The notes below the pieces were generated by a model. The model was not told the DNA's origin, ran no database searches, and saw only the letters and a program-made list of their open reading frames with translations. A program made the translations under genes and the position numbers. A stretch of 64,000 bases of DNA from Escherichia phage NHEP10, in sequence record PQ511148.1; one strand, written 5' to 3'. Positions 32,124 to 32,917 of this stretch are shown here, piece by piece (position 1 is the stretch's first letter; each line of letters opens with the position of its first letter).

Positions 32124-32147
32124 TATAAATCTCCTTGATTAAAGCAA

Positions 32148-32155
32148 TATAAATA
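32148..32155 (+). promoter_or_regulatory. T4-type late promoter TATAAATA on plus strand
   Basis: Exact TATAAATA 46 bp upstream of HNH gene ATG; second near-match TATAAATC at 32124-32131. Confidence 0.5.
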
Positions 32156-32200
32156 GGTTTATCAATTTATCTGTTGCTGTATCAAATAAGGATTTAGTAA

Positions 32201-32917
32201 ATGAATTATAACTCAATATACGAAAAGCTTATTACCAATGCTAAATCAAGAAGTTTAGATGGTTATACAGAACGTCATCACATTATACCACAATGTTTAG
32301 GTGGAAGTGATGATGCTTTAAACTTAGTAGATTTAACACCAGAAGAACATTATTTGGCACATCAACTGTTGGTAAAAATCCATCCAGATAATGCCTCTTT
32401 AATATATGCTGCTCGTATGATGACTATCTCATCTCCTAAAGCAGATAGAAGCAAAAACAAATTATTTGGATGGCTTCGACGTAAGAATCAAGAAGTTCAA
32501 AAGAACAAAGAATTCACTGCTGAAACTCGTAAGAAAATGTCCGAGTCGGCAAAAAATAAACCAAAGATTACATGTCCACACTGCGGTTTAACCGGCACTG
32601 AAGGAAACATGAGACGTTGGCATTTTGATAACTGTAAACAAGGCCCTACGCCTAAAATAGTAAAACTTGATCAAGAAACAAAAGATAAAATAATTAAAAC
32701 CATGGCCACGAAAATTTGGAAAGAAGATTCTTGCCCGTTTTGTGGCTTAACTACTAAGTTATCGGCGTTAAAGCCGCATATAAAATTCTGTAAATCAAAT
32801 CCTAACAGAAAGAAAAAAGAGGACAAGAAAATTAAATGTCCTCATTGCGATAAAATAGGGATCCCTGCTAATATGCGTCGTTGGCATTTTGATAACTGTA
32901 AACATAAGCCTCATTAA
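32201..32917 (+). mobile_element. Free-standing HNH homing endonuclease with three zinc-finger-like repeats
   Basis: 238 aa on opposite strand; HNH core ERHHIIPQCLGG...NLV.LT.EEH; repeats CPHCGLTGTEGNMRRWHFDNCK x3; AAGGA SD. Confidence 0.75.

Follow-up and report, generated by a model that had tools for sequence, protein, structure and literature searches.

The free-standing HNH endonucleases of the T4 Mob family are described, in the cited sections of the MobE study, as sharing an N-terminal HNH domain followed by a C-terminal region specific to each protein (Wilson & Edgell 2009, PMC2790892). T4 MobE nicks nrdB of phage T2, which lacks mobE, near the mobE insertion site, and phages with and without mobE can be told apart by polymorphisms (PMC2790892). 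Here we analyze a putative member of this family in a 64,000-nucleotide stretch of Escherichia phage NHEP10 (PQ511148.1; hereafter the window), an RB69-like T-even phage of the genus Mosigvirus. An intact plus-strand open reading frame (ORF) of 238 amino acids with an ATG start lies between genes 45.2 and 46. A prediction made from the sequence alone (the original prediction) had read an interval starting at 32124, the first base past the 45.2 start codon, and comprising the intergenic region and this ORF, as an HNH homing endonuclease gene (HEG) with its own late promoter, inserted between the two genes. Because its N-terminal HNH domain is common to the Mob proteins and its C-terminal region is specific, the HEG belongs, as judged from sequence, to the T4 Mob family of free-standing HNH homing endonucleases.

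Like mobE, the HEG is sporadic, free-standing, and intergenic between conserved T-even genes, with an N-terminal HNH domain of the same family, and in both systems polymorphisms in an adjacent gene separate carriers from non-carriers. The two differ in layout. In the cited sections, mobE is co-oriented with its neighbours and without a promoter of its own (PMC2790892), whereas the HEG is inverted and preceded by a conserved, predicted late promoter. It also lies at another locus and encodes three zinc fingers compared to one in MobE, for which a nick has been mapped. Compared by description, I-TevIII (from the nrdB intron of RB3) and I-HmuI likewise join an HNH catalytic domain to modular DNA-binding elements. 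I-TevIII cuts both DNA strands as a dimer, whereas I-HmuI is a nicking enzyme. Both are intron-encoded, unlike the HEG, for which no intron was detected and no Rfam family match was found within 31000-35000. The cited part of a review by Edgell (PMC2988022) describes an early unit within which middle or late promoters drive transcription of I-TevIII.

We aligned the HEG protein with 33 homologues to evaluate its catalytic core. E24, H26, H27, P30, C32, G35, N41, H50, and H54 were invariant, so that the canonical HNH core proposed in the original prediction (HH...N...H..H, formed by H26, H27, N41, H50, and H54) is present without mutation. The three predicted CxxC...H...C modules were also confirmed as conserved CCHC units, which AlphaFold2 modelled as beta-beta-alpha fingers. 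However, the HFDNCK ending attributed to all three holds for the first and third only, with HIKFCK in the middle unit. The AlphaFold2 model (mean predicted local distance difference test score of 88.5) also placed a possible beta-beta-alpha unit at the HNH motif and a helix over the NUMOD3-like stretch KEFTAETRKKMSESAKNK. Fold searches with it gave weak matches to tandem CTCF fingers, the Rad18 UBZ CCHC finger, and HNH domains.

Database searches agreed on the type of protein to differing degrees. The HEG matched PHROG 655, 'homing endonuclease', with E=1.2e-66, while in Pfam and NCBIfam all matches, to zinc-ribbon and HNH models, stayed below threshold (e.g. 13.5 bits for Pfam HNH_5 against a cut-off of 27.5, and no match to an NCBIfam HNH model). 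The family has diverged too far from these curated models to be recognised by them. A single-sequence search of Protein Data Bank sequences returned no significant match. A profile of the 33-homologue alignment aligned residues 21-50 to the HNH core of McrA (E=0.003), and also aligned with group II intron maturase and Cas8-HNH cores. A total of 2533 homologues were found at E<1e-5 in a large protein database, many of them annotated with NUMOD3. The T6 protein at the mobE position, between nrdA and nrdB, was 32% identical over its full length (BLASTP E=6e-33), with the HNH domain, NUMOD3-like helix, and last finger in common. Matches by tblastn included genes annotated as mobE, mobD, and 'Mob-like'; the RB51 orthologue is annotated 'similar to mobB', and near-identical copies of the HEG are already labelled 'homing endonuclease' or 'HNH nuclease' in GenBank. 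No paralogue was found elsewhere in the window.

To establish how the gene is distributed, the 45.2-46 junction was compared among relatives. A 2.3-kb query across the locus retrieved 267 matching phage records in the Mosigvirus survey, and the HEG ORF was present in 13. RB69 and dozens of other phages with 97-98% flank identity were without it. In a separate Tequatrovirus query, 60 of 526 records carried an orthologue, and T4 and RB14 did not. Presence is thus sporadic at a fixed site in both genera, and the variability among isolates that had been anticipated was borne out.

Junction structure was examined in nine HEG+ genomes (the window included) and eight HEG- genomes, with the boundaries of the cassette fixed by eye and by anchored extraction. 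The HEG- phages share a nearly invariant 67-bp intergenic region where the HEG+ phages have approximately 0.8 kb. As the cassette alters the ends of both 45.2 and gene 46 (Table 1), it represents a replacement rather than a clean insertion, which qualifies the proposed mobile insertion while leaving its mobility intact. An exact-pattern scan of IMG/VR for further Mosigvirus junctions yielded two loci only. Two HEG-less IMG/VR contigs (L079 and L080) agree almost exactly with Mosigvirus over the empty site and ~65 bp at the 3' end of gene 46, then diverge sharply; here a mosaic breakpoint lies near the HEG insertion point in genomes without the HEG.

Evidence of movement came from the flanks. 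In a permutation test on pairwise distances, HEG status was associated with polymorphism in the first 100 bp of the gene 46 3' end (p=0.002). Elsewhere in gene 46, and in gene 45, rpbA, and 45.2, no association was seen (p=0.5-1.0). Phage ESCO47 provided the clearest single case. Its left flank was 76-87% identical to the window, its intergenic region and HEG 97.6-99.2%, and its gene 46 94-98%, with the jump in identity coinciding exactly with the cassette edge. The HEG is thus unlinked from its flanks past ~50-100 bp, as expected of horizontal movement. The OZ035759 copy was a chimera, in which the first two thirds were 90-97% identical and the last 240 nt, encoding fingers 2 and 3, only 56%. 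The replaced part (~2750-3016; window-equivalent 32650-32900) resembles the C-terminus of a metagenomic protein, P0005.

The ORF has been maintained throughout. Close copies differed by 66 synonymous and 8 non-synonymous changes (dN/dS of 0.00-0.08), and more distant copies gave dN/dS of 0.15-0.30. Ten further copies, among the close and distant relatives examined, were intact at 238 amino acids, and that of Cronobacter phage Cronuts at 236. By these sequence measures, purifying selection on the HEG is strong, and the flank comparisons show that it has moved from one background to another.

The same junction was occupied in other genera. Orthologues convergent with gene 46 were present in IME281 (68% amino acid identity), the Tequatrovirus phages FL08 and RB51 (58%), and Cronuts (46%). 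Divergence of the HEG tracked that of gp46 in IME281 (67.6% and 67.7% identity, respectively) and Cronuts (46% and 43%), while in Tequatrovirus the HEG was more diverged than gp46 (58% vs 82%). The extra gp45.2 Ala (as in IME281 and Tequatrovirus) and an altered gp46 C-terminus also accompany the HEG in these lineages. The shared junction, tracking divergence, and co-occurring edge changes therefore point to an old lineage, site-faithful across genera with turnover within each genus, and not a recent arrival.

The Tequatrovirus orthologues (RB32ORF054w, RB51ORF057, and the FL08, fFiEco06, and Ozark genes) are close counterparts at the same junction. They encode 237 (RB51) or 238 amino acids in the same orientation, and have the late promoter, leader, and three-finger architecture in common with the HEG. 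They differ in a right boundary three codons deeper in gene 46 (gp46 ends SLAKIS), in the sequence of the terminal hairpin, and in the absence of the antisense MotA-like motif described below.

The HEG has a likely transcription signal of its own. A T4-type late promoter octamer, TATAAATA, precedes the ATG in the correct orientation and at a suitable distance. This octamer is under-represented in the window (4 copies on both strands vs 7.35 expected from shuffles), and the copy before the HEG is the only one on the plus strand. The octamer and leader (GTTTATC...GCTGTATCAAA..AGGAT) are kept upstream of the IME281 and FL08 orthologues, despite protein identities of 58-68%, and this conservation supports a real late promoter, in agreement with the original prediction. 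The Cronuts orthologue has CCTAAATA in place of TATAAATA. The other three copies, all on the minus strand (11016-11023, 43856-43863, and 54801-54808), sit at or just beyond the ends of listed minus-strand ORFs; that at 43856-43863 is 30 nt upstream of a minus-strand ORF starting at 43826. We also considered an I-TevI-like operator, as the leader sequence GTTTATCAAT is similar to GTTTATGAAA, found where gene 46 stops in the empty site. This match was too short and the candidate was rejected.

Signals directed toward the neighbouring operon were also found. The MotA-type motif overlapping the 45.2 start is kept from the empty-site intergenic region; the empty site of SA79RD has the same motif at the same spacing, annotated as a middle promoter, together with an annotated hairpin. 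A local alignment of HEG+ and HEG- intergenic regions was matched or exceeded in score by 25.9% of shuffles. Because this is not significant, we claim no homology at the left junction, where only the spacing of the promoter motif is common. The second, antisense motif within the HEG is present in IME281 and absent from FL08 and Cronuts. Scanning the window for GCTT-N12-14-TATAAT gave seven minus-strand matches (10282-10305, 20004-20027, 21602-21624, 59345-59368, and 60281-60304, in addition to the two in Table 1) and none on the plus strand, with a chance expectation of <1 per strand by a rough estimate from base composition. This bias fits a block of early and middle genes encoded on the minus strand. 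The two motifs at the cassette may stand in for the 45.2-rpbA-45 promoter that was displaced. Similar embedded promoters are described for other T4 seg and mob genes in the cited part of the review (PMC2988022).

At the opposite end, the extended hairpin enclosing both stop codons gave RNA folding z-scores of -5.3 (plus strand) and -4.5 (minus strand). Its inner stem is identical in IME281, and FL08 and Cronuts pair at this position with other sequences. A standard scan for intrinsic terminators did not call this hairpin. It may act as a terminator or a stabiliser.

A single codon of gene 46 was a candidate for a target-site polymorphism. The Leu codon of the HLQM motif in gp46, 36 bp from the cassette, was CTT in all 12 HEG- genomes examined, from two genera. 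Among HEG+ genomes it was TTG in six of nine Mosigvirus, TTA in IME281, ATT in FL08 and RB51, and ATC in Cronuts. CTT, the HEG-less form of the codon, was retained in the HEG+ genomes a20, ESCO47, and OZ035759. As these three keep CTT, the change is linked to the HEG without being obligatory, and the codon cannot alone explain immunity. They may have arisen by homing in which co-conversion extended over <36 bp, and loss of the site's intergenic half to the cassette would be a simpler form of protection than the codon change. Polymorphisms of a similar kind are reported around the MobE nick site in the cited sections (PMC2790892).

Our data suggest that the locus is probably a self-contained Mob-family homing cassette, composed of late promoter, leader, ORF, and hairpin, which spreads by homing. 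From these comparisons we infer the following course. Late in infection, gp55, the phage sigma factor, would transcribe the HEG from TATAAATA. The NUMOD3-like helix and three CCHC fingers would bind a long asymmetric site in a co-infecting relative without the HEG, most probably at or near the gene 46 end and the 45.2-46 intergenic region. There the N-terminal HNH domain, of the predicted beta-beta-alpha-metal type, would nick or cut. Recombinational repair templated on the HEG+ genome would then introduce the cassette, with co-conversion of only very short tracts. The HEG+ genome would be protected since the cassette replaces the intergenic half of the site, with the change of the gp46 Leu codon possibly helping.

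Other explanations account for parts of this evidence. The HEG is almost certainly neither a random open frame nor a pseudogene in decay, both of which are refuted by its intact copies of 236-238 amino acids, the low dN/dS among close and distant copies alike, the invariant residues, and the number of homologues. An HNH nuclease with a non-homing function, such as an HK97-like packaging HNH or an enzyme degrading host or competitor DNA without specificity, is conceivable insofar as the HNH core alone is common to many nuclease classes. We consider this highly improbable, since the HEG does not adjoin the terminase genes, is dispensable (absent from ~90% of close relatives, RB69 included), combines a NUMOD3-like helix with three fingers, long modular DNA-binding repeats that typify site-specific homing enzymes, and has closest named relatives annotated as mobE, mobD, or mobB-like.

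A more serious alternative is that the HEG is an old vertical resident, lost by sporadic deletion and exchanged only by general T-even recombination, whose protein is no longer an active homing enzyme. The gene may then be kept for regulation, for competition between phages, or for promoters serving 45.2-rpbA-45. Several observations fit: HEG divergence parallels that of the flanks across genera; HEG+ and HEG- haplotypes, defined by the gp45.2 Ala and the gp46 C-terminus, are each common to several genera; and MotA-like motifs that would serve the neighbouring operon are found inside the cassette and next to it. According to the cited part of the Edgell review, such embedded promoters make it more likely that T4 seg and mob genes are kept (PMC2988022). 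We nonetheless find this explanation unlikely. Purifying selection extends over the whole ORF including the catalytic residues, and the antisense promoter motif was not kept in FL08 or Cronuts. Likewise, ESCO47 has a near-identical HEG although its adjacent left flank differs by 13-24%, the break falling exactly at the cassette edge, and frequency is low in two genera (~5-11%), as expected of cycling between gain and loss. A broader proposal, which we advance only tentatively and with some doubt, is that ancient HEG+ and HEG- alleles coexist at 45.2/46 across several Straboviridae genera. Under this proposal, the HEG haplotype would be a regulatory cassette complete in itself. It would alter the termini of the genes on either side and bring its own hairpin and middle promoters as replacements, with one promoter antisense in the first ten codons of the HEG. 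The specificity modules of the fingers would be exchangeable by recombination, as in the OZ035759 chimera. If true, the two haplotypes and the gp46 Leu changes in four lineages would offer a natural series for co-evolution of a CCHC-finger HNH enzyme and its target.

A homing cassette at this junction would be an element of known type and changes no concept. The T-even repertoire would gain one more free-standing HNH homing endonuclease, at 45.2/46, a locus that is not discussed in the reviews consulted and on which full-text literature searches found no paper. With clean empty-site partners (RB69 and T4), three CCHC fingers in tandem, and an allele in which fingers have been swapped naturally, the system would be convenient for mapping a Mob-family target and for learning how modular zinc fingers set homing specificity.

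The features discussed are collected in Table 1. Gene order in this block is 44, 45, rpbA, 45.2, HEG, 46, 46.1, 46.2, and 47, with every gene except the HEG on the minus strand. The stop codons of the HEG and gene 46 overlap (TTAA, 32914-32917).

Table 1. Coordinates of the HEG cassette, its signals, and neighbouring genes in the window
Feature	Position	Strand	Basis or remark
HEG ORF, 238 aa; HNH domain ~aa 1-100, NUMOD3-like helix aa 102-120	32201-32917	+	homologue alignment, AlphaFold2 model
Zinc finger 1, C125 C128 H141 C145, CPHC...HFDNC	32573-32635	+	alignment; AlphaFold2 strands 122-124 and 131-133, helix 134-141
Zinc finger 2, C178 C181 H193 C197, CPFC...HIKFC	32732-32791	+	alignment, AlphaFold2; most variable finger
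Zinc finger 3, C213 C216 H229 C233, CPHC...HFDNC	32837-32899	+	invariant in 33/33 homologues
Predicted T4-type late promoter of HEG, TATAAATA	32148-32155	+	45 nt before ATG
Conserved 5' leader, GTTTATC...GCTGTATCAAATAAGGAT; Shine-Dalgarno AAGGA at 32188-32192	32156-32200	+	orthologue upstream comparison
MotA-type middle-promoter-like motif, GCTTTAA-N10-TTATAAT	32122-32145	-	motif scan; -10 element overlaps 45.2 start codon
Second MotA-type motif, GCTT-N14-TATAAT	32205-32228	-	antisense in HEG codons 2-10, toward 45.2-rpbA-45
Extended hairpin; inner stem AAGCCTC/GAGGCTT (32906-32924), outer stem ACTGTAA/TTACAGT	32895-32934		encloses both overlapping stops
Left cassette edge: extra Ala codon 2 in gp45.2, MAEYS vs HEG-less MEYS	32118-32120	-	junction alignments
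Right cassette edge: gene 46 last three codons and stop rewritten, KAS-stop vs HEG-less TVS-stop	32914-32925	-	junction comparison
gp46 Leu codon in HLQM, TTG in window; candidate target-site/immunity polymorphism	32959-32961	-	HEG+/HEG- comparison
Gene 44	29736-30698	-	RB69 comparison
Gene 45	30774-31475	-	RB69 comparison
rpbA	31503-31919	-	RB69 comparison
45.2	31932-32123	-	RB69 comparison
Gene 46	32914-34602	-	RB69 comparison

The HEG had also been called the only large plus-strand gene of the window. This is right in substance, as the remaining plus-strand ORFs of at least 120 amino acids each lie within or across minus-strand genes. One candidate for a second plus-strand gene, an ORF of 148 amino acids with a GTG start (39104-39550), was judged spurious because several small minus-strand ORFs (39097-39324 and 39239-39559) overlap it.

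Further polymorphisms were observed near the locus. On the other side of gene 46, phages F2, G2469, and SQ17 have a minus-strand HNH gene in place of 46.1 and 46.2, which the window retains. It is annotated 'MobE mobile endonuclease' in SQ17 and spans 4690-5301, 4688-5299, and 3949-4560 in loci L002, L083, and L090, respectively (window-equivalent ~34600-35080). All combinations of this polymorphism with that at 45.2/46 occur. F2 (NC_054913.1) is filed under Tequatrovirus and its locus is 98% identical to Mosigvirus, indicating either a misclassified record or a mosaic genome. Phage G2285, whose HEG protein is 100% identical to that of the window, has two extra ORFs spanning ~0.9 kb between gene 45 and rpbA (609-1498; window-equivalent ~31476-31502), which the window and the other relatives retrieved lack.
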